Source: Candidatus Omnitrophota bacterium
GTDB lineage: Bacteria; Omnitrophota; Gorgyraeia; Ghiorseimicrobiales; Ghiorseimicrobiaceae
Assembly (NCBI GenBank): GCA_030681595.1
Contig: JAUXSB010000003.1
Coordinates: forward strand, 31,207-95,206
Direction of reading: 5' to 3'
DNA length: 64,000 bases
In this document: piece after piece, positions 5,865 to 36,032 of the stretch
How positions within the stretch are numbered: the first letter of the stretch is position 1
How the letters are laid out: each line of letters opens with the position of its first letter
Notes under the pieces: model-generated
The model's input: only the letters and a program-made list of their open reading frames with translations
The model's database searches: none
Told to the model about the DNA's origin: nothing
Program-made: the position numbers and the translations under genes

Positions 5865-6040
5865 CTCCTCAATGAGCACATAAGTTACAGAACACAATGA
5901 TGTAACTTATAAGTGCGAATTGATCCCGTTGAGTGCCTAAAAATTATAGTATAGAATTTTTAGGCATATTACGAAACGGGATAGATCCGATTAATGAGCC
6001 CCGAAGCTTCGGGGCGAATTGATCCCAACGATATGTCGGG
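5865..6040 (-). promoter_or_regulatory. Conserved structured upstream element, copy A (with a tandem extra half-unit)
   Basis: Read on the minus strand, an outer stem CCCGTT/AACGGG encloses the palindrome TGCCTAAAAATT-CTATACTAT-AATTTTTAGGCA. This is followed by GGGATCAATTC, the hairpin GCACTTATAAGTTACA...TGTAACTTATGTGCTC, ATTGAGGAG and the GTG start. A second GGGATCAATTC plus the hairpin GCCCCGAAGCTTCGGGGC and TCATTAA lies at 5992-6026. Confidence 0.55.
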
Positions 6041-6643: not shown

Positions 6644-7900
6644 TTAATCTACCGAGATTGTTTTACTTGCCGAAGAAACATTCCCTTTGTTGTCGTAGGC
6701 AAATAAATAAACCCGGTAAAGGCCTTTCTTAGAAGGTAATTCTACTTTTGCCGCGCCATCTCTTATCGTCAAGGAAACATCTATGAAATCATTAACGTAA
6801 TATTGTAAGATGCCTTCGTGTGTGGTACTTAGTTTAATTTCATAGCGTAATCTATCCTTCTCCTCATCTTCAGCAAAAAACCTTACATCTATAATCTCGC
6901 CCGGTTTTACGCTGGCCCTATCCAGCGTAAAGAGTTTAATCTGTGGTGGCATATTCAATGGTTTTTTGCCGGTATAAAACTCATAGACAACCCAAAATGG
7001 CAGCCTTTTAAACATGGAATAATTTATATTCCACCATGTCATTGATTCCTGCGTTGTCTCGCCTAAATGAAAAACAAAGCCGCCTAAATTAAAACCCCTA
7101 AATTCCTCTATTTGACTGCAAAGCTCGCGATACCAGATTGCCTTTGCTTTATCATTAAGCTCAATTGCGGCGCCGTTTTCTTCCTTTCTGGATTGTGAAG
7201 CTATCGGCGGGCCAAATTCGCTTAAGGCATACGGCTTATTCATTTTTAAATAAAGATATGTACCGTGACAGGGGCGCAAAGTCGGGTACACATTCATTCC
7301 TATAATATCTACGGAGGGCATATATTCTTTTATATACTTTAGCTCCACATAGTTTGAGCCTGTATACATTACCGGATGTTTTGGGTCTATCTTATGGATT
7401 TTTTCTGCCAAATAATTTATAAATTTTGCCAAGGCAATTTTTTCATCCTCATCCTGCGTAAAAAATATGCACTCATTTCCTACGCCCCATATTAAGATAG
7501 CGTCGTGGCCTTTATATCGCTCGACATAATCCAGCACTTCCTTTTCTTTCTTCCGTTTATACCCGATGTCGAAATAGCTTACCCCCTTCTCCGGCAAGGC
7601 GCTGTTAATCCATATTCCTGCGCATACATAAATGCCGTATTTTCGCGCCTTCTCTAAATATTCTTCTGTCCCTTGATCTATGCCCCAGGTGCGTACAGTA
7701 TTTGCCCCTAATTCCTTAGCTAGCTTAAGATAATCTTCGCCGCCTTTACCCTTATGCAAGCCGCATCCAGCACCATTAATATAAAAAGGCGCTCCGTCAA
7801 CTAATAGCTGCCATGCGCCTTCCTCACCGTCAATTTTTACTTCTGTGCAATGCGCAATAGTGGAAAAAAATAAAAATAGCAAAGCAAAAAAACATCGCAT
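6644..7900 (-). CDS. Secreted glycoside hydrolase, clan GH-A TIM-barrel (GH5/GH2-like) with C-terminal beta-sandwich domain
   Basis: 418 aa. It has an N-terminal signal peptide (MRCFFALLFLFFSTIAHC). GANTVRTWG and WGVGNE (the Asn-Glu acid/base motif) are typical of GH-A enzymes. Confidence 0.55.
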   Translation of the reverse strand: MRCFFALLFLFFSTIAHCTEVKIDGEEGAWQLLVDGAPFYINGAGCGLHKGKGGEDYLKLAKELGANTVRTWGIDQGTEEYLEKARKYGIYVCAGIWINSALPEKGVSYFDIGYKRKKEKEVLDYVERYKGHDAILIWGVGNECIFFTQDEDEKIALAKFINYLAEKIHKIDPKHPVMYTGSNYVELKYIKEYMPSVDIIGMNVYPTLRPCHGTYLYLKMNKPYALSEFGPPIASQSRKEENGAAIELNDKAKAIWYRELCSQIEEFRGFNLGGFVFHLGETTQESMTWWNINYSMFKRLPFWVVYEFYTGKKPLNMPPQIKLFTLDRASVKPGEIIDVRFFAEDEEKDRLRYEIKLSTTHEGILQYYVNDFIDVSLTIRDGAAKVELPSKKGLYRVYLFAYDNKGNVSSASKTISVD

Positions 7901-8547: not shown

Positions 8548-8582
8548 CAAGCTGCAAGCTGCAAGCTCCAAGCTGCAAGCTT
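8548..8582. repeat. Five tandem 7-bp units CAAGCTN
   Basis: The sequence reads caagctg caagctg caagctc caagctg caagctt, directly upstream (in the minus sense) of the rluA-like start. Confidence 0.8.
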
Positions 8583-8589
8583 TTAGCCT

Positions 8590-8650
8590 GAAGCCTGTGG
8601 CTTTGGCTATATTGAAAGCCAAACCACTGCCCTCTGGCTGGTGGCTTGTA
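8590..8650. repeat. Single copy of the 44-bp hairpin repeat family (GGCTTTGGCTATATTGAAAGCCAAACC core)
   Basis: gtggctttggctatattgaaagccaaaccactgcc at 8597-8632 has the same core as the tandem array at 35608-35794. Confidence 0.8.
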
Positions 8651-8679
8651 GCATGAAGCATATTTTCTCGCTACTTCTT

Positions 8680-11636: not shown

Positions 11637-11755
11637 CCTCCTTTCAATGACGACACAACTTATGGAGTCACGGACGGCATAAGTTGTATGTCGGAATTGA
11701 TGCCGAAAGCTACGAGAAAATTTGTAGCAAATTTTCGAGTGTTTTGCTTTCGGCG
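11637..11755 (-). promoter_or_regulatory. Conserved structured upstream element, copy B
   Basis: Read on the minus strand: CGCCGAAAGC-AAAACA-CTCGAAAATTTG-CTA-CAAATTTTCTCG-TA-GCTTTCGGC, then ATCAATTCC, the hairpin GACATACAACTTATG...CATAAGTTGTGTC, GTCATTGAAAGGAGG and the ATG. Confidence 0.55.
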
Positions 11756-11828
11756 CAATGCATAACTTACAAATTCCAAAACCTCCGGATGAACGAGTTA
11801 TTTACGCGTAGTAAAACCTACCTTTTCA

Positions 11829-15131: not shown

Positions 15132-15380
15132 TTAATGGTTTATATGCGGATGTTTTAGCTTATACCATTCGCAGAAAAAGCATTTCTCAATGCCGCGTTT
15201 ATCGCTGACTCTGCCGCAATATTGAGCCGCGACATGCCAACACTCTTTATCCGATTTATGGCTTTGGCGATATGGAAAGCCAAACCATTGCCTTGCCGGC
15301 TTATAGGCGGGGCAATTTTCTCTTGATTCTATTTTACATTCAAAATATTCCCAGCATGTTTTGGCATCTTTGTCAGGCAT
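15132..15380 (-). CDS. Small Cys-rich protein with two C-W motifs ('two-CW'-type)
   Basis: I take the start at the ATG at 15380 (MPDKDAKTCWEYFEC...CPAY...ECWHVAAQYCG...CFFCEWYK). The ATG overlaps the upstream kinase stop by 8 nt (ATGCCTGA). It is a paralog of 25662-25904. Confidence 0.55.
   Translation of the reverse strand: MPDKDAKTCWEYFECKIESRENCPAYKPARQWFGFPYRQSHKSDKECWHVAAQYCGRVSDKRGIEKCFFCEWYKLKHPHINH
15257..15304. repeat. Copy of the 44-bp hairpin repeat embedded in-frame in the two-CW gene
   Basis: ttatggctttggcgatatggaaagccaaaccattgccttgccggcttat is about 90% identical to the units at 35608-35794. It encodes KPARQWFGFPYRQSHK, a segment absent from the paralog. Confidence 0.75.
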
Positions 15381-20463: not shown

Positions 20464-21738
20464 TTACTCCAATTTAAATTTACTAATAGACGACTTAAAT
20501 GCCTCGGATAATTTATTCAACTGCATAGCGCTATTGGCTATCTGCTTGGCCGCCACAGCAAACTGCTTGGTAACCGTATCAATGTTTTTCATTGCCTCGG
20601 CGACTTGCGAGGAGGCGGTCTTCTGCTGCTGGGTAGCCAGCGAGATTTCCTTGGAAATCTTGGCACTGTCTTCTACCATCTTTAAACCTTCGGAAACTCC
20701 CTGCGTTGAGTCTTCTATGCCCATTACTACATTATTAGTCTCGGATTGTATTTCACCAATCAGCTGCCTAATCTCACCGGTAGACTCTATGGAACGCTCG
20801 GCTAATTTCCTTACCTCGGAAGCGACTACGGCAAAGCCGCGCCCTGCCTCTCCTGCGCGCGCCGCCTCAATAGCGGCATTTAAAGCCAAAAGGTTGGTCT
20901 GGCTTGAGAGGTCGTCAATCATGGAAGTAATCTTGCCGATGGCCTGCGATTTTTCGCCTAGGCATAAGATTTTCTTGGCGGCATCGGAAACTTTGGCGTT
21001 TATCTCTTTCATTTCAAGCAGGGTGCGCTCTGCGGCACGGGTGACGTTAAAGGCATTTTCGGCAATCGCTGTGGCTGTGCGGGAAAGCTCTTCCATCGTA
21101 GAAGTGGTTTCAGTAACAGCGGAAGCCTGCTCAGTTAAAGCTACGCTCTGCTCTTCGGCGGCAGAACGAATCTGCGTAGTTTCAGCGCTCACTTCCAAGC
21201 CAGCCTCACGAATTTGTTTAATCAACTCTTTCAGGCTTTTAATCATATGGTTGAAAGATTCTACCAGAGGCTTAAGCACAGGCAAGATATCTAAGGCCAT
21301 CTCCTGCGCCAGATTGTTTTCTTTCGAAGCATTTATTGTAAATACAGTTAACCTGCTTATGTCTTCCTCTAATTCCCTTCTTGCCCTAACCGCAGACCCC
21401 TCTTCCATCCTTTTATCTATAAGCATCTGATGCAAGATTTCAACGGTCTTATTAAAAGTCTCGGAGAATTTCCCAAACTCATCATTTGTTTTTACATCTA
21501 ATACTAAATCGTAATTACCCATAGCCAGGCCTTTAGAGGTAATCAATATTATGTCTATGGCGGCTACTATCCCGCGGATCTTCCGCCAGCTAAAAAAAAC
21601 ACATACCCCTACTAATACCAATTGTATCAACACCTTTAAAATTATGGGTATATTCAATAATCCCACCGCTAAAATTCCAAGCGAACCGGCAACAGTACAG
21701 CTGCCGCTTACCAAAATCAATTTATGCCTGACTAGCAT
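20464..21738 (-). CDS. Methyl-accepting chemotaxis protein (two TM, HAMP, no large sensor domain)
   Basis: 424 aa. It has the highly conserved signalling-domain core [40 protein letters not shown]. Confidence 0.9.
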
Positions 21739-24219: not shown

Positions 24220-25374
24220 TTAAGTTTCCCTATCTGCTATTTCTTCCCTGAATTTGACTACATGTTTTTTAAGATTATCCGCGAGATCATTCAGCTTGGT
24301 GGAACTAGCAACTGACTGCTTGGCCGCCACGGCAAACTGCTTGGTAACCGTATCGATGTTTTTCATTGCCTCGGCGACTTGCGAGGAGGCGGTCTTCTGC
24401 TGCTGGGTAGCCAGCGAGATTTCTTTGGAAATCTTAGCACTGTCTTCTACCATCTTTAAACCTTCGGAAACACCGCGTGTTGAATCTTCTATGCCCATTA
24501 CTACGCTGTTAGTTTCCGCCTGTATTTCATTAATCAGCTGCCTAATCTCCTCGGTGGACTCGACTGAACGCTCGGCTAATTTCCTTACCTCGGAAGCGAC
24601 TACGGCAAAGCCGCGCCCTGCCTCTCCTGCGCGCGCCGCCTCAATAGCGGCATTTAAAGCCAGGAGGTTGGTCTGGCTTGAGAGGTCGTCAATCATGGAA
24701 GTAATCTTGCCGATGGTCTGCGATTTTTCGCCAAGTGCCAATATTTTCTTGGCGGCATCGGAAACTTTGACGCTTATCTCTTTCATTTCAAGCAGGGTGC
24801 GCTCTGCGGCACGGGTGACGTTATACGCGTTTTCAGCGATAGATGAAGCGGTACGGGAGAGCTCTTCCATTGTGCTGGTAGTTTCAGTGACGGCGGAAGA
24901 CTGTTCAGAGGCACCCGAGGCCTGTTCTTCGGTCGAGGCCATTATTTGGGCAGCGCAGGAAGTTACTTCCAGGCTTGCCTGCTGGATCTGATACATTAAA
25001 TTTCTTATACTTGCTATCCTCTTTACTGCCGCTCCTTCTTCCATCCGTTTATCAATAAGCATCTCATGAAGGATATCTATGGTGCGGTTAAAACTTTCGG
25101 CGAATTTACCAAATTCATCCTTGGTTTTTATATCCAACACTAAATCATAGTTGCCATAATTAAGCCCTTTGGATACATCCACAATCAACTCTAAAGGCGC
25201 AAGAAGCCTAAAAATGCCATATATGATAAGAATTACGCTAACCGCTATTAAGATAAACTTTGAACCGAGGTTTAAAGAAGGGGTTAATTGCAGGGTGTCT
25301 ATCCAGAATAAGCCGATAAAAAGCAAAATAATAGCTGCGCCGGTGATTAATAATAATTTATACTTTACACGCAT
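24220..25374 (-). CDS. Methyl-accepting chemotaxis protein, paralog of 20464-21738
   Basis: 384 aa. It has the same signalling core. The 3' ~600 nt are nearly identical at DNA level to the other MCP. Confidence 0.9.
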
Positions 25375-25550
25375 AACTACCTCCTATCCCGCGTAAAAAA
25401 TTTTACTAAAAAATAAGTAAACTTTCATCGTCACGGCAGCCACAAAAATACCTGCTAAATAAATCAACTTTTCTGCCGGCCTGAAAGATTCTTTAAATAA
25501 ATGGGATCCGGTAGCCTTATTTAGCCTCTAAAAAACCTAGCGCGGGATTT

Positions 25551-25661
25551 ACCCCGTTAGAGAAACCGTCTTATTTTAGTCAGCGGTCATTACTAAATCC
25601 AACGATGGTCAAAACTCAGCGTCAGCGCAAACCATTAGAGAATTTCGTTCTCTAACGGGGT
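25551..25661. repeat. 111-bp element bounded by 14-bp terminal inverted repeats ACCCCGTTAGAGAA / TTCTCTAACGGGGT (copy 1)
   Basis: The left repeat is at 25551-25564 and the right repeat at 25648-25661. The element abuts the TAA stop (25664-25662) of the two-CW gene. A third TTAGAGAA at 25634 can pair locally with the right arm. Confidence 0.75.
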
Positions 25662-25904
25662 TTACTGACTAACCTTAATTTCATCCCCTTTACCGTGATC
25701 CTTATAGACCTTACAAATCTTACAAACGCTGACATCTATGCCGGATTCGCCTTTACAGATAGTACCTTTTATTATCCAGCAAGGATATTCCTGTTTTTTG
25801 TATGCCGCGCAACTTGGCGCCCCACCGGGCTTAATCTCACAACCTCTTACTTCCCAACAAGCTGTTTTTCCGGACCAGAATCCTGTTCCTTTTGGTAAAG
25901 CCAT
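25662..25904 (-). CDS. Small Cys-rich protein with two C-W motifs ('two-CW'-type)
   Basis: 80 aa: ...TACWEVRGC...SCAAYKKQEYPCWIIKGTICKG...VCKICKVYK. A strong RBS (GGGGAGG) lies 5 nt upstream of the ATG. Confidence 0.6.
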   Translation of the reverse strand: MALPKGTGFWSGKTACWEVRGCEIKPGGAPSCAAYKKQEYPCWIIKGTICKGESGIDVSVCKICKVYKDHGKGDEIKVSQ

Positions 25905-25908
25905 CTTT

Positions 25909-26028
25909 TCCTCCCCTCAATGACGGCATAACTTATGGAGCCAGAGACGACATAAGTTATCAGCCGGAATTGATCCCGATAGTTACAAGAAAATTTAGTA
26001 TAAATTTTCGCAGTGTTTTACTATCGGG
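25909..26028 (-). promoter_or_regulatory. Conserved structured upstream element, copy C
   Basis: Read on the minus strand: CCCGATAGT-AAAACA-CTGCGAAAATTT-ATA-CTAAATTTTCTTG-TA-ACTATCGGG, then ATCAATTCC, the hairpin GGCTGATAACTTATG...CATAAGTTATGCC, GTCATTGAGGGGAGG and the ATG. Confidence 0.55.
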
Positions 26029-26147
26029 ACAATGATCCCCGTCGGTTATCTTATCCTCTGCAATTCGAAGAATTACGAGGACTTAGTCCCTGAAATTGCT
26101 TCGCAATTTCTAGGGGCGAGACGGGACAAACCGACCTTTCTATTTTC

Positions 26148-27963: not shown

Positions 27964-27975
27964 TTTTTATTTTTT

Positions 27976-28095
27976 ACCCCGTTAGAGATACCCTATCTAC
28001 TGCTTAAGACCAACTACTTATTTATAGAAGCTCTATTCTGTTTTTGCCTATCCCGTAATAGACGGCCATCTATGATGGCCTATCTCTAACGGGGT
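27976..28095. repeat. 120-bp element bounded by terminal inverted repeats ACCCCGTTAGAGATA / TATCTCTAACGGGGT (copy 2)
   Basis: The left repeat is at 27976-27990 and the right repeat at 28081-28095. The aldolase TAG stop (28088-28086) lies inside the right arm. The interior is unrelated to that of copy 1. Confidence 0.75.
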
Positions 28096-28877
28096 TTATG
28101 CTTTATCTCTTCATACAGCTCAAATGCCTGTTTTACCTTCGCCTTCTTATGTACGATTTCCCTCACTGCCATAATCATTCCAACAGGACAGTCAGATTGA
28201 AAAATATTCCTGCCCATATCCACCCCTATCGCTCCGTCGGACACTGCATTAAACGCCAGCTCCAGGGCAGCTTTTTCCTCAATTTTTTTTCCTCCGGCAA
28301 TAACCACCGGAACCGGGCATTCCTTAACTACCTGCGTAAAATTCTCGCAATAATAAGTTTTTACAAAATGCGCACCCAATTCCGCGGCAATCCTGCAACA
28401 CAGGCTCAAATAACGCGCGTCGCGGTTCATTTCTTTGCCTACGGCAGTAACTGCTAATACCGGAATGCCGTACTTTTGGCCTTCATCTACAAGATGAGCA
28501 AGGCTCAACAGCGTCTCTTTCTCGTATTCGCTACCCACAAATATCGAAAGAGCAACCGCGGAAACATTTAACCGTAAAGCATCCTCCATTGAAACAGTGA
28601 GCCCTTCGTTAGCTAAGGATTTTCCGATAACGCTTGTGCCTCCGGAAACGCGCAAAACAACCGGGACGTCATCTTGGGCATTAACGGACGCACGCAAGAT
28701 ACCCCGAGTAAGCATAAGAGAATCCGCGTACGGCAGAAGCGGCTTAATAGTTTCTTTCGGCTCTTCTAAACCTGAAGTAGGCCCTAAAAAATAACCATGG
28801 TCTATAGCCAGCATTACAGTACGTCCTGTCTCCGGTTTTATTATACGAGATAACCTGTTTTTTAATCCCCAATCCAT
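28086..28877 (-). CDS. Class I aldolase of the DhnA/FbaB/LsrF family
   Basis: It has MLAIDHG, VLRVSGG, the Schiff-base Lys context FVKTYY, and AGG. I placed the start at the ATG at 28877 (MDWGLKN), which is preceded by GAGGAGGAGG. The track's MSSLRRKS extension reads through the leader. Confidence 0.7.
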   Translation of the reverse strand: MDWGLKNRLSRIIKPETGRTVMLAIDHGYFLGPTSGLEEPKETIKPLLPYADSLMLTRGILRASVNAQDDVPVVLRVSGGTSVIGKSLANEGLTVSMEDALRLNVSAVALSIFVGSEYEKETLLSLAHLVDEGQKYGIPVLAVTAVGKEMNRDARYLSLCCRIAAELGAHFVKTYYCENFTQVVKECPVPVVIAGGKKIEEKAALELAFNAVSDGAIGVDMGRNIFQSDCPVGMIMAVREIVHKKAKVKQAFELYEEIKHKPR

Positions 28878-28883
28878 GGATTT

Positions 28884-29002
28884 CCTCCTCAATGACGACA
28901 TAATTTACGGAAACGAAGTTGACGTAAATTATATGTCGGAATTGATCCCGCCGAATGTACCAAAATTATAGAATATAATTTTGGTACATTTTATGAGGCG
29001 GG
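28884..29002 (-). promoter_or_regulatory. Conserved structured upstream element, copy D
   Basis: Read on the minus strand: CCGCC-TCATAA-AATGTACCAAAATTATA-TTC-TATAATTTTGGTACATT-CGGCGG, then GATCAATTCC, the hairpin GACATATAATTTACG...CGTAAATTATGTC, GTCATTGAGGAGGAGG and the ATG. Confidence 0.55.
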
Positions 29003-29013
29003 ATAAACATTAA

Positions 29014-30838: not shown

Positions 30839-30926
30839 CGGAGGCGGAAGGATTCGAACCTTCGATCCACTTGCGCAGACTCCGGTTTTCGAAACCGGTG
30901 CACTCAACCAACTATGCGACGCCTCC
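30839..30926 (-). tRNA. tRNA-Ser (anticodon CGA), class II with long variable arm, no encoded CCA
   Basis: The minus strand reads GGAGGCG-TC-GCA-TAGTTGGTTGAG-TGC-A-CCGGT-TTCGAAA-ACCGG-AGTCTGCGCAAGTGGATC-GAAGG-TTCGAAT-CCTTC-CGCCTCC-G. This folds into a full cloverleaf with a 3-bp D stem. Confidence 0.92.
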
Positions 30927-35593: not shown

Positions 35594-35607
35594 AAATTAC
35601 CTTTGCA

Positions 35608-35794
35608 CTTATGGCTTTGGCTAAATTGAAAGCCAAACCATTGCCTTGTGGCTTATGGCTTTGGCTATATTGAAAGCCAAACCATTGCCTTGTGGCTTAT
35701 GCCTTTGGCTATATTGAAAGCCAAACCATTGCCTTGTGGCTTATGCCTTTGGCTATATTGAAAGCCAAACCATTGCCTTACCGGCTTATGCCTT
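35608..35794. repeat. Tandem array, 4.2 copies of a 44-bp hairpin unit
   Basis: The unit is CTTATGSCTTTGGCTATATTGAAAGCCAAACCATTGCCTTGTGG. Copies lie at 35608, 35652, 35696 and 35740, with a partial copy at 35785. Each unit contains the hairpin TGGCTTTGGCT-atattgaa-AGCCAAACCA. Confidence 0.9.
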
Positions 35795-36032
35795 ATTCAA
35801 ATTTACTATTTTAATTATATCAACTTTCTTCAAATATTGCAACCCAATAAATTACCGCGAGCCTTATTATAGTTATAGCACATAAATTAACTACTGGCGC
35901 AGAAAATAACGCCTTATACATAAGCGCATTAAGGTTACAAGACATTCTGCTATGCAGGCAACACTTCAACTTATCTTTCCGCATTAATGCTCATTTAAAT
36001 ATAATGCTGCTTATGAAAATATTAATGCAGTA

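Follow-up and report, generated by a model that had tools for sequence, protein, structure and literature searches.

What are the two short elements with matching inverted ends and unlike interiors that close two genes of a Candidatus Omnitrophota bacterium, and how did they come to lie there? Both are found in a stretch of 64,000 nucleotides of contig JAUXSB010000003.1 (assembly GCA_030681595.1, positions 31,207 to 95,206), the whole of which was analysed and is called the window below, with positions counted from its first nucleotide. A sequence-only reading of this DNA had seen in each of them the end of a cassette made up of leader, open reading frame (ORF) and inverted-repeat hairpin, and had been reminded of recombination sites or of long terminator and stabiliser hairpins. 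We propose a different origin: both elements are probably copies of a non-autonomous palindromic mobile DNA, akin to miniature inverted-repeat transposable elements (MITEs), to repetitive extragenic palindromes (REP) and REPINs, and to Rickettsia palindromic elements (RPE).

Two copies of a palindromic element in the window

The sequence ACCCCGTTAGAGA occurs exactly at 25551 and 27976 on the plus strand, and 25649-25661 and 28083-28095 carry its reverse complement; when up to two mismatches are allowed, the window contains 6 matches against 0.62 expected, a number reached by no shuffle. The conserved unit is the pair CCCCGTTAGAG/CTCTAACGGGG, located at 25552-25562 with 25650-25660 in copy 1 and at 27977-27987 with 28084-28094 in copy 2, and every one of the four exact arms in the window belongs to one of these two pairs. 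The arms are exact in both copies and form perfect stems of 14 bp (copy 1) and 15 bp (copy 2), while the interiors of 85 and 94 nt bear no relation to each other; in these respects the earlier description of conserved 14-15-bp inverted ends around unrelated interiors holds, and the ends are also relevant to function. What it did not include is that both copies are bracketed by direct repeats of TTTA. The features of the two copies and of the genes that they adjoin are as follows.

25548..25664, minus strand: element copy 1 with both repeats, TTTA + 109 nt + TTTA; interior family 0, whose forward orientation is the minus strand; aligned with 19 relatives from other phyla
25548..25551: left 4-nt direct repeat TTTA of copy 1, from the sequence and the flank statistics of 254 elements
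25552..25564: left arm of copy 1, CCCCGTTAGAGAA, from the sequence
25630..25640: inner degenerate arm copy of copy 1, AACCATTAGAG; local pairing with the right arm possible; a hallmark of family 0
25648..25660: right arm of copy 1, TTCTCTAACGGGG, from the sequence
25661..25664: right direct repeat TTTA of copy 1, the complement of which carries the TAA stop of the two-CW gene
27973..28098, minus strand: element copy 2 with both repeats, TTTA + 118 nt + TTTA; interior of family-1 type
27973..27976 and 28095..28098: direct repeats TTTA of copy 2, from the sequence
27977..27990: left arm of copy 2, CCCCGTTAGAGATA, from the sequence
28064..28080: subterminal GC hairpin of copy 2, GGCCATCTATGATGGCC; a family-1 feature, the stem sequence of which varies among relatives
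28081..28094: right arm of copy 2, TATCTCTAACGGGG; contains the TAG stop (28086-28088) of the LsrF-like aldolase/thiolase gene
25662..25904, minus strand: two-CW domain gene, 80 aa; upstream neighbour of copy 1, outside the element; TAA at 25662-25664
28086..28901, minus strand: LsrF-like thiolase/DhnA-type aldolase gene (NF006081 profile); its last three codons, P, R and stop, come from copy 2

Every gene in the element-bearing part of the window lies on the minus strand. Copy 1 directly adjoins the TAA of the two-CW gene, and a methyl-accepting chemotaxis protein (MCP) gene starts 177 nt further downstream; copy 2 holds the aldolase TAG within its right arm, as had been observed, and leaves 9 nt to the ATG of the next gene, for a response regulator. 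The hairpin GGCCATCATAGATGGCC of copy 2 is also present in L025, another Omnitrophota locus.

When copy 1 is deleted in silico together with one TTTA, the sequence reads ...AAG GTT AGT CAG TAA ATCCCG... and keeps the TAA, which points to insertion at a stop-bearing TAAA, with the left repeat preserving the stop; copy 1 would thus have inserted at the TAAA that holds the two-CW stop codon. When copy 2 is deleted with one TTTA, the aldolase ORF runs on as ...KHKKIKNENSYC, followed by a stop, across the response-regulator ATG, and the junction without copy 2 is a typical overlapping gene junction. With copy 2 in place, the aldolase ORF ends in ...KHKPR, the TAG in the arm being its stop codon. 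At residue 267 of 271, the aldolase has already matched the NF006081 profile to position 290 of 291; the match is complete before the arm, so that no conserved part of the aldolase was lost. Copy 2 would have entered a TAAA at the aldolase/response-regulator junction, the final few non-conserved codons being exchanged for P-R-stop from the arm. In a comparison of the window loci for population polymorphism, the only other contig with the two-CW gene (L125) has the same 287-nt spacer, and no record of the aldolase product was found.

A family with paired ends, free interiors and a duplicated target

The anatomy of the element was derived from 254 exact copies of 25-128 nt; a few copies reach about 280 nt. 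In 155 of the 254, the 4 nt on either side are identical, against 16 expected from the marginal frequencies, and 154 of these 155 flanks fit YNNR. The 4-mers are mostly TAAA/TTTA, TGAA/TTCA and TCAA/TTGA in AT-rich genomes, and CGAG/CTCG, CAAG/CTTG and CGTG in GC-rich genomes. Arm positions 2-10, CCCGTTAGA, are nearly invariant among copies that were found secondarily and are thus free of the search pattern. At positions 1 and 11, the common variants occur as matching changes in the two arms (CCCCGTTAGAA with TTCTAACGGGG; TCCC... with ...GGGA), which indicates that the pairing of the ends is maintained.

Between the arms, the interior is 3 to about 110 nt long and falls into several sequence families, different ones of which coexist within one genome, the window included. 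Family 0, to which copy 1 belongs, has 28 members from Omnitrophota, Desulfobacterota, Nitrospirota, Elusimicrobiota and the Candidate Phyla Radiation (CPR), and is characterised by an inner arm copy beside one end and by compensatory changes in its two internal hairpins. The family-1 type of copy 2 consists of arm, ATAGG, a GC hairpin with a member-specific stem, CCGT and an AT-rich stretch. The 31-nt hairpins, which comprise an arm, a loop of 3-4 nt and an arm, look like deletion derivatives of family 0 that arose between its two direct arm copies. Copies also lie in tandem or nested in one another, and adjacent ones have a 4-mer in common (...CTCTAACGGGG-TTGA-CCCCGTTAGAG...).

On one 7.7-kb metagenome contig (L135), two end hairpins at 121-172 and 7531-7582 are exact reverse complements of each other, flanks included; in this pair the palindrome has probably seeded a fold-back artefact of assembly.

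Copying within genomes and insertion at pseudopilin leaders

Variation in presence or position among relatives had been suggested as a check on the elements, and it was found in both forms. In JAFDFZ01, a metagenome-assembled genome (MAG) of the Desulfobacterota, four copies lie on four contigs with interiors that are 90-99% identical (three of them at 97-99%), and the 100-nt flanks of these copies, at background identity, are unrelated. In other genomes, pairs of elements are 82-90% identical. Presence and absence are seen in the major pseudopilin GspG of Omnitrophota, the orthologues of which are about 70-85% identical: most have the short leader MRNKGFTLIEL..., and some carry an N-terminal insert of 15-40 unrelated residues, with ...GFTPLE and LTGFTLIEL at its bounds. 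Deletion of the element and one 4-nt repeat was carried out at eight pilin-gene sites, from six organisms; it yields an ordinary prepilin leader followed by FT(L/F/I)(I/V)E in seven cases and restores GFSLLE in the eighth (L053_6072). About 9 of 126 long copies lie at exactly the G-F-T codon position of the pilin genes. By a rough estimate this share exceeds the frequency of TTTAC alone, which makes the G-F-T codons a hot spot. The pilin target, GGN-TTTA-CNCTNATHGAR, resembles the joined ends ACGGGG-TTTA-CCCCGTTAGAG.

The element length plus 4 nt is divisible by 3 in 141 of the 254 copies; 44 copies lie within a frame that is open for at least 150 nt on each side, and 40 of these 44 are in-frame. 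Three of the six frames through the arms are open, and these read TPLE...LTG or NPVR...SNGV. Intragenic hosts include leucyl-tRNA synthetase (LeuRS), UvrD/PcrA-like helicases, an Mfd-like protein, an acyl-CoA synthetase-like protein and a giant Omnitrophota ORF. The alignment of LeuRS from an Elusimicrobiota single-cell genome with that of T. thermophilus (PDB 1h3n) is broken only by an insert of 37 aa, residues 171-207, which is exactly the element. Compensatory changes in the stems alter the encoded residues and thus argue for selection on nucleic-acid structure rather than on a peptide. A protein-coding small gene was rejected, as a peptide profile of family 0 recovered only 20 tiny ORFs of 33-72 aa.

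Two loci have elements within a multi-kb frame on the minus strand. In L048 (whole 8 kb), it is read in-frame as ..SVGM FTPLE...SLTG FTSRG..; in L096 (448-7746), the frame that was translated contained stops.

Distribution across phyla

A scan of one genome per species with the exact pattern CCCCGTTAGAG-N70-100-CTCTAACGGGG matched at least 120 stretches, and a metagenome scan with the same arms 3-30 nt apart also matched at least 120. Judged by record titles, with the taxonomy labels of MAGs used as written, the hosts among the matches listed represent about 12 phylum-level groups: Omnitrophota, many Patescibacteria/CPR lineages, Planctomycetota, Desulfobacterota, Nitrospirota and Elusimicrobiota, and furthermore Ratteibacteria, Stahlbacteria, WOR-3, Auribacterota, Bdellovibrionales and one Clostridia MAG. 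Because exact arms were required, abundance and end conservation are only partly measured and the counts are lower bounds. A viral or plasmid origin was rejected: the viral contigs scanned gave 0 matches and the plasmid search gave none. For the element, Rfam returned nothing at the gathering score and, at E<=10, only a chance small-RNA match with a bit score of 20 against a gathering score of 45. Literature searches with the DNA and peptide strings retrieved nothing beyond unrelated primer matches, and in the literature on REP- and MITE-type repeats in the host phyla no description of this element was found.

Proposed mechanism and the search for a mobilising enzyme

These observations show a unit that is a hairpin of inverted-repeat ends with the invariant core CCCGTTAGA and an interior free to vary. 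Its insertion duplicates 4 bp of the target with the consensus YNNR, its copies multiply within a genome and are present or absent at one site in orthologous genes, and they persist where they are harmless, namely between genes, at stop codons and in-frame in proteins. To account for this we propose a trans-acting enzyme that would recognise the paired ends and make a 4-bp staggered cut at the target; since arm changes are mirrored on both arms, its substrate would probably be a DNA hairpin or cruciform.

Several observations weigh against a mobile element of this kind. The flanks are unequal in 39% of copies. The flank of family 0 is always TNAA in a single orientation (27/27), with G at -5, which a symmetric cut-and-paste insertion does not predict; both flank orientations are seen in another interior family, and the bias could be accounted for by any of three candidates, the overlap region of a recombinase, a cleavage site of HUH type or overhangs inherited as in piggyBac. 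The exact-arm patterns partly impose the conservation of the 11-mer, only the copies found secondarily in the same loci being unbiased, and termini of 9-11 nt are identical across phyla, which would be unusual in a MITE or REP family. No transposase, recombinase or other gene family recurs within 4-7 kb of about 240 loci, and 1.6 Mb of locus sequence contained no longer element that has these ends around a coding interior.

Among known transposases, the IS1380/piggyBac type is presumably the nearest, judging by the CC... ends and the 4-5 bp duplication that the ISfinder tables reportedly give for it. IS1380 was nevertheless rejected as the parent: the transposase near an arm-like hairpin in locus L111 has its own ends, CCTTGTAGTTGCATAAA/CCTTAACGTTGCATAAA, its relatives are without arms, and its proximity to the hairpin is coincidental. 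Among the 150 ORFs that were scanned as the closest to an arm, none more than 400 nt away, 2 contained Y1_Tnp, and neither of the two is bracketed by hairpins on both sides. One of the two Y1 genes near elements is the RAYT gene of L151 (904-1533, minus strand), which is flanked by classical CTAC-AAGGGGCACCCTT-GTAG REPs at ~840-870, ~1550-1575 and ~1805-1825. The other is an IS200/RAYT-like gene (PF01797) at 2081-2898 of L111, split by a family-0-like element at 2698-2803; when the element and its right 4-mer are removed in silico, the Y1 ORF continues as ...KLVQWGIGKKTIWTEVRGQTLLGEDDF.... These two genes give no support to RAYT/IS200 as the mobiliser, which it may nonetheless be. The guide-sequence model of IS200/IS605 was rejected: none of the internal positions covaries with the flanking 4-mer, and CTTT still precedes the right arm when the flank is TGAA.

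Two side observations concern the same contigs. In L151, a CCCCGTTAGAG hairpin lies about 200 nt from the GTAG-type REPs, so that two hairpin-repeat systems occur on one contig. In L111, the Y-motif region LNPVRA of the Y1 gene is encoded by arm-like DNA (AAYCCNGTNAGRG).

As a tentative extension, which we hold to be possible rather than probable, the element may represent an undescribed pan-phylum family of hairpin mobile DNA, the 9-11 nt termini of which would be held constant by a widely shared enzyme that reads the folded ends and inserts them with a 4-bp stagger. The termini might at the same time be 'codon-aware': their closed frames would supply TAA, TGA and TAG, and one frame would regenerate the prepilin-peptidase site between ..LTG and FT... 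The element could then sit silently in pseudopilin leaders of type II secretion systems and type IV pili (T2SS/T4P) and in essential proteins of the streamlined CPR and Omnitrophota genomes.

Should the element prove as widespread as the scans suggest, it would commonly give rise, without being annotated itself, to small spurious ORFs, extended N-termini and peptide inserts in the annotation of MAGs of Omnitrophota, Patescibacteria, Planctomycetota and neighbours. It marks DNA exchange, or a shared enzyme, among very distant phyla that cohabit groundwater and sediments, and carries the phenomenon of 'selfish DNA inside protein genes', familiar from Rickettsia, into many more lineages. The clean repeated insertions at the pseudopilin G-F-T codons offer a natural assay site for the mobilising enzyme.

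Alternative explanations

The elements could instead be structured cis-acting RNAs at mRNA 3' ends (a stabiliser, processing site or insulator/terminator) spread by horizontal gene transfer, which we consider unlikely. Both window copies lie just past stop codons in the sense orientation of their families, fold into long hairpins far better than shuffled sequences (sense strand, z = -4.7 and -6.6), and, in family 0, the internal hairpins are conserved with compensatory changes. Furthermore, ORFs of 90 aa or more have their stop codon inside 37 of the 254 copies; we attribute this to the preferred targets in AT-rich genomes, TAAA, TGAA and TAGA, which hold stops, and to selection against most other genic insertions. 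A cis-acting RNA is at odds with the 44 copies inside ORFs and their frame, with the 4-nt target duplications, with interiors that are interchangeable and shrink to 3 nt, and with the lack of an Rfam family at E<=10. Between co-directional flanking genes the elements are oriented at random, with 15 copies co-directional and 15 opposite, as expected of behaviour at the level of DNA. Of the earlier idea of a 3' hairpin, the long hairpins predicted at the mRNA 3' ends remain, whereas a simple terminator does not: besides the random orientation, the sense-strand tails, UAAAUCC and UAAAAAAU, differ from those of an intrinsic terminator in having no U-tract, and the terminator scan gave no flag. The predicted stem of 14-15 bp in the operon mRNA could serve as a candidate RNase III site or 3' stabiliser, and any such putative effect of the window copies on the host would be secondary.

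Quite unlikely, in our view, is a site for site-specific recombination in the manner of attC or Xer/dif that bounds mobile units, with the arms as two recombinase-binding sites around a crossover of 4-6 bp. The joined form CTCTAACGGG-GYNNRC-CCCGTTAGAG does resemble a core site, tandem copies form exactly this palindrome, the 4-mer of family 0 is inherited and orientation-specific, and the preferred GspG target resembles the joined ends. Like an integron attC, the element is an imperfectly conserved hairpin in which the ends are kept and the centre varies; it can lie at or just past a stop codon, and its arms contain AAC/GTT triplets and stop codons. However, the order of the triplets in CCCC-GTTAGAG...CTCTAAC-GGGG is the reverse of that in attC (5'-RYYYAAC...GTTRRRY-3'), the stems are perfect over 14-15 bp with neither extrahelical bases nor an unpaired central spacer, and no IntI, other integrase or Xer-like gene recurs near the loci. 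In contrast to ORF-attC arrays, the arrays are back-to-back hairpins with no ORFs between them, and many copies lie inside genes. The flanks of most insertions are unlike the arms, and the units are 3-110 nt rather than genes; a duplex circle of 30-120 bp would presumably be a poor substrate. The comparison with attC-type recombination sites made in the sequence-only reading is therefore not upheld.

A DNA-uptake-type signal, similar to the DNA uptake sequences (DUS) or uptake signal sequences (USS) that often form inverted pairs behind genes, is very improbable: the strictly conserved 9-11-mer, often just behind genes, and the abundance of type IV pili in the host lineages together with the pilin-gene link would suit it, but the motif is almost never single (all four exact window arms are paired), its density is far below one per kb, and target duplications and in-frame intragenic copies are foreign to uptake sequences.

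The leader motif and other features of the window

The leader of the two genes is a well-conserved 5'-UTR (untranslated region) motif, ...CGGGATCAATTCCGACATATAACTTATGTCGTC...CTCCATAAGTTATGTCGTCATTGAGGAGG-N4-7-ATG, in which a covarying hairpin immediately precedes the Shine-Dalgarno sequence; the hairpin shows compensatory changes (ACTTATG:CATAAGT, ATTTACG:CGTAAAT, AGTTACA:TGTAACT). Its copies are located as follows.

~25905-26035: leader copy in the window, upstream of a minus-strand gene
~28902-29010: leader copy in the window, upstream of a minus-strand gene
~11657-11760: leader copy in the window, upstream of a minus-strand gene
~5898-5990: leader copy in the window, upstream of a minus-strand gene
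L062 3136-3256: leader in another Omnitrophota locus
L025 4084-4183: leader in another Omnitrophota locus
L046 1676-1752: leader in another Omnitrophota locus

The four window genes behind it are functionally unrelated (two-CW, LsrF-like aldolase, MscS-like channel and sulfhydrogenase-beta-like). The motif had no Rfam match and may be a new cis-regulatory RNA of Omnitrophota. It is independent of the palindromic element: two of the four window copies are near one, and the elements occur in hundreds of unrelated contexts without the leader. The proposed cassette of leader, ORF and hairpin is not supported, and for the window the idea of a gene-cassette system falls away.

The window has some further features. 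A second, unrelated palindromic repeat family, TTATGGCTTTGGCTATATTGAAAGCCAAACCATTGCCTTG..., forms four tandem 44-nt units at 35596-35815 and occurs singly near 8582-8669 and 15256-15304. Between ~40300 and ~56800 lie eight dispersed copies of a 60-nt segment, 60-70% identical and ending in ...GGTTCTCCTCCGGTAA; these copies and other blocks shared there suggest about eight clustered paralogous genes, which from a motif may be radical-SAM-like. The MCP genes flanking cheA are 88% identical in DNA over their signalling domains (20515-20814 versus 24289-24588; 21389-21537 versus 25025-25173), which indicates recent duplication or gene conversion. A tRNA of 88 nt with a long variable arm lies at 30839-30926 on the minus strand (Rfam tRNA, 60 bits); with the anticodon loop read by eye as UUCGAAA, it would be a tRNA-Ser(CGA).

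Comparison with known systems

RPE are palindromic repeats of 30-150 bp that are dispersed between and within genes and translated as short peptide inserts; Ogata et al. reportedly described them in 2000 as inserted in-frame in housekeeping genes, and they are not known to have a dedicated transposase. The element resembles RPE in being palindromic, in having no coding capacity of its own, and in occurring both between genes and in-frame in conserved genes as peptide inserts. RPE have been placed among the CGTC-tagged repeats (PMC3733652). The element has neither a CGTC tag nor a CCA tail and, judged by the description of RPE in that paper, which does not fit it, no apparent sequence similarity to them. 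In contrast to RPE, which are confined to one genus, it has a 4-bp YNNR duplication, the same termini in many phyla and a hot spot in prepilin leaders.

REP and REPIN elements are associated with RAYT (Y1 HUH) transposases (PMC3116915, PMC3733652, PMC6006769), and in such a system the mobiliser is expected as a single-copy gene elsewhere in the genome. As in REPs, the element forms palindromic hairpins that often lie behind genes, with many per genome and the stem kept by compensatory change, and as in REPINs, two inverted arms enclose a spacer of about 70-100 nt. It differs in that no GT[AG]G or CGTC tag is present at the foot of the hairpin, where a variable YNNR direct repeat is found instead (PMC3733652, PMC6006769), and in that REPs are species-specific, with no target duplications reported, whereas the element is spread over the phylum-level groups listed above.

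With MITEs such as Correia/NEMIS and RUP, which are mobilised by DDE transposases, the element has in common terminal inverted repeats (11-15 bp perfect in both window copies), a target-site duplication of fixed length, small size and variable interiors, as well as several near-identical copies per genome, nested or tandem insertions, a position next to genes and potential RNA hairpins. Unlike MITEs, it has no partner insertion sequence with the same ends in the 1.6 Mb of loci, copies can be as short as 25-30 bp, and the mirrored arm changes point to a hairpin substrate; MITE and REP families are normally lineage-specific, in contrast to termini conserved across phyla. What sets the element apart from all of these systems is the combination of the same termini in about a dozen phyla, a tiny minimal size, mirrored arm changes and a hot spot in pseudopilin leaders.

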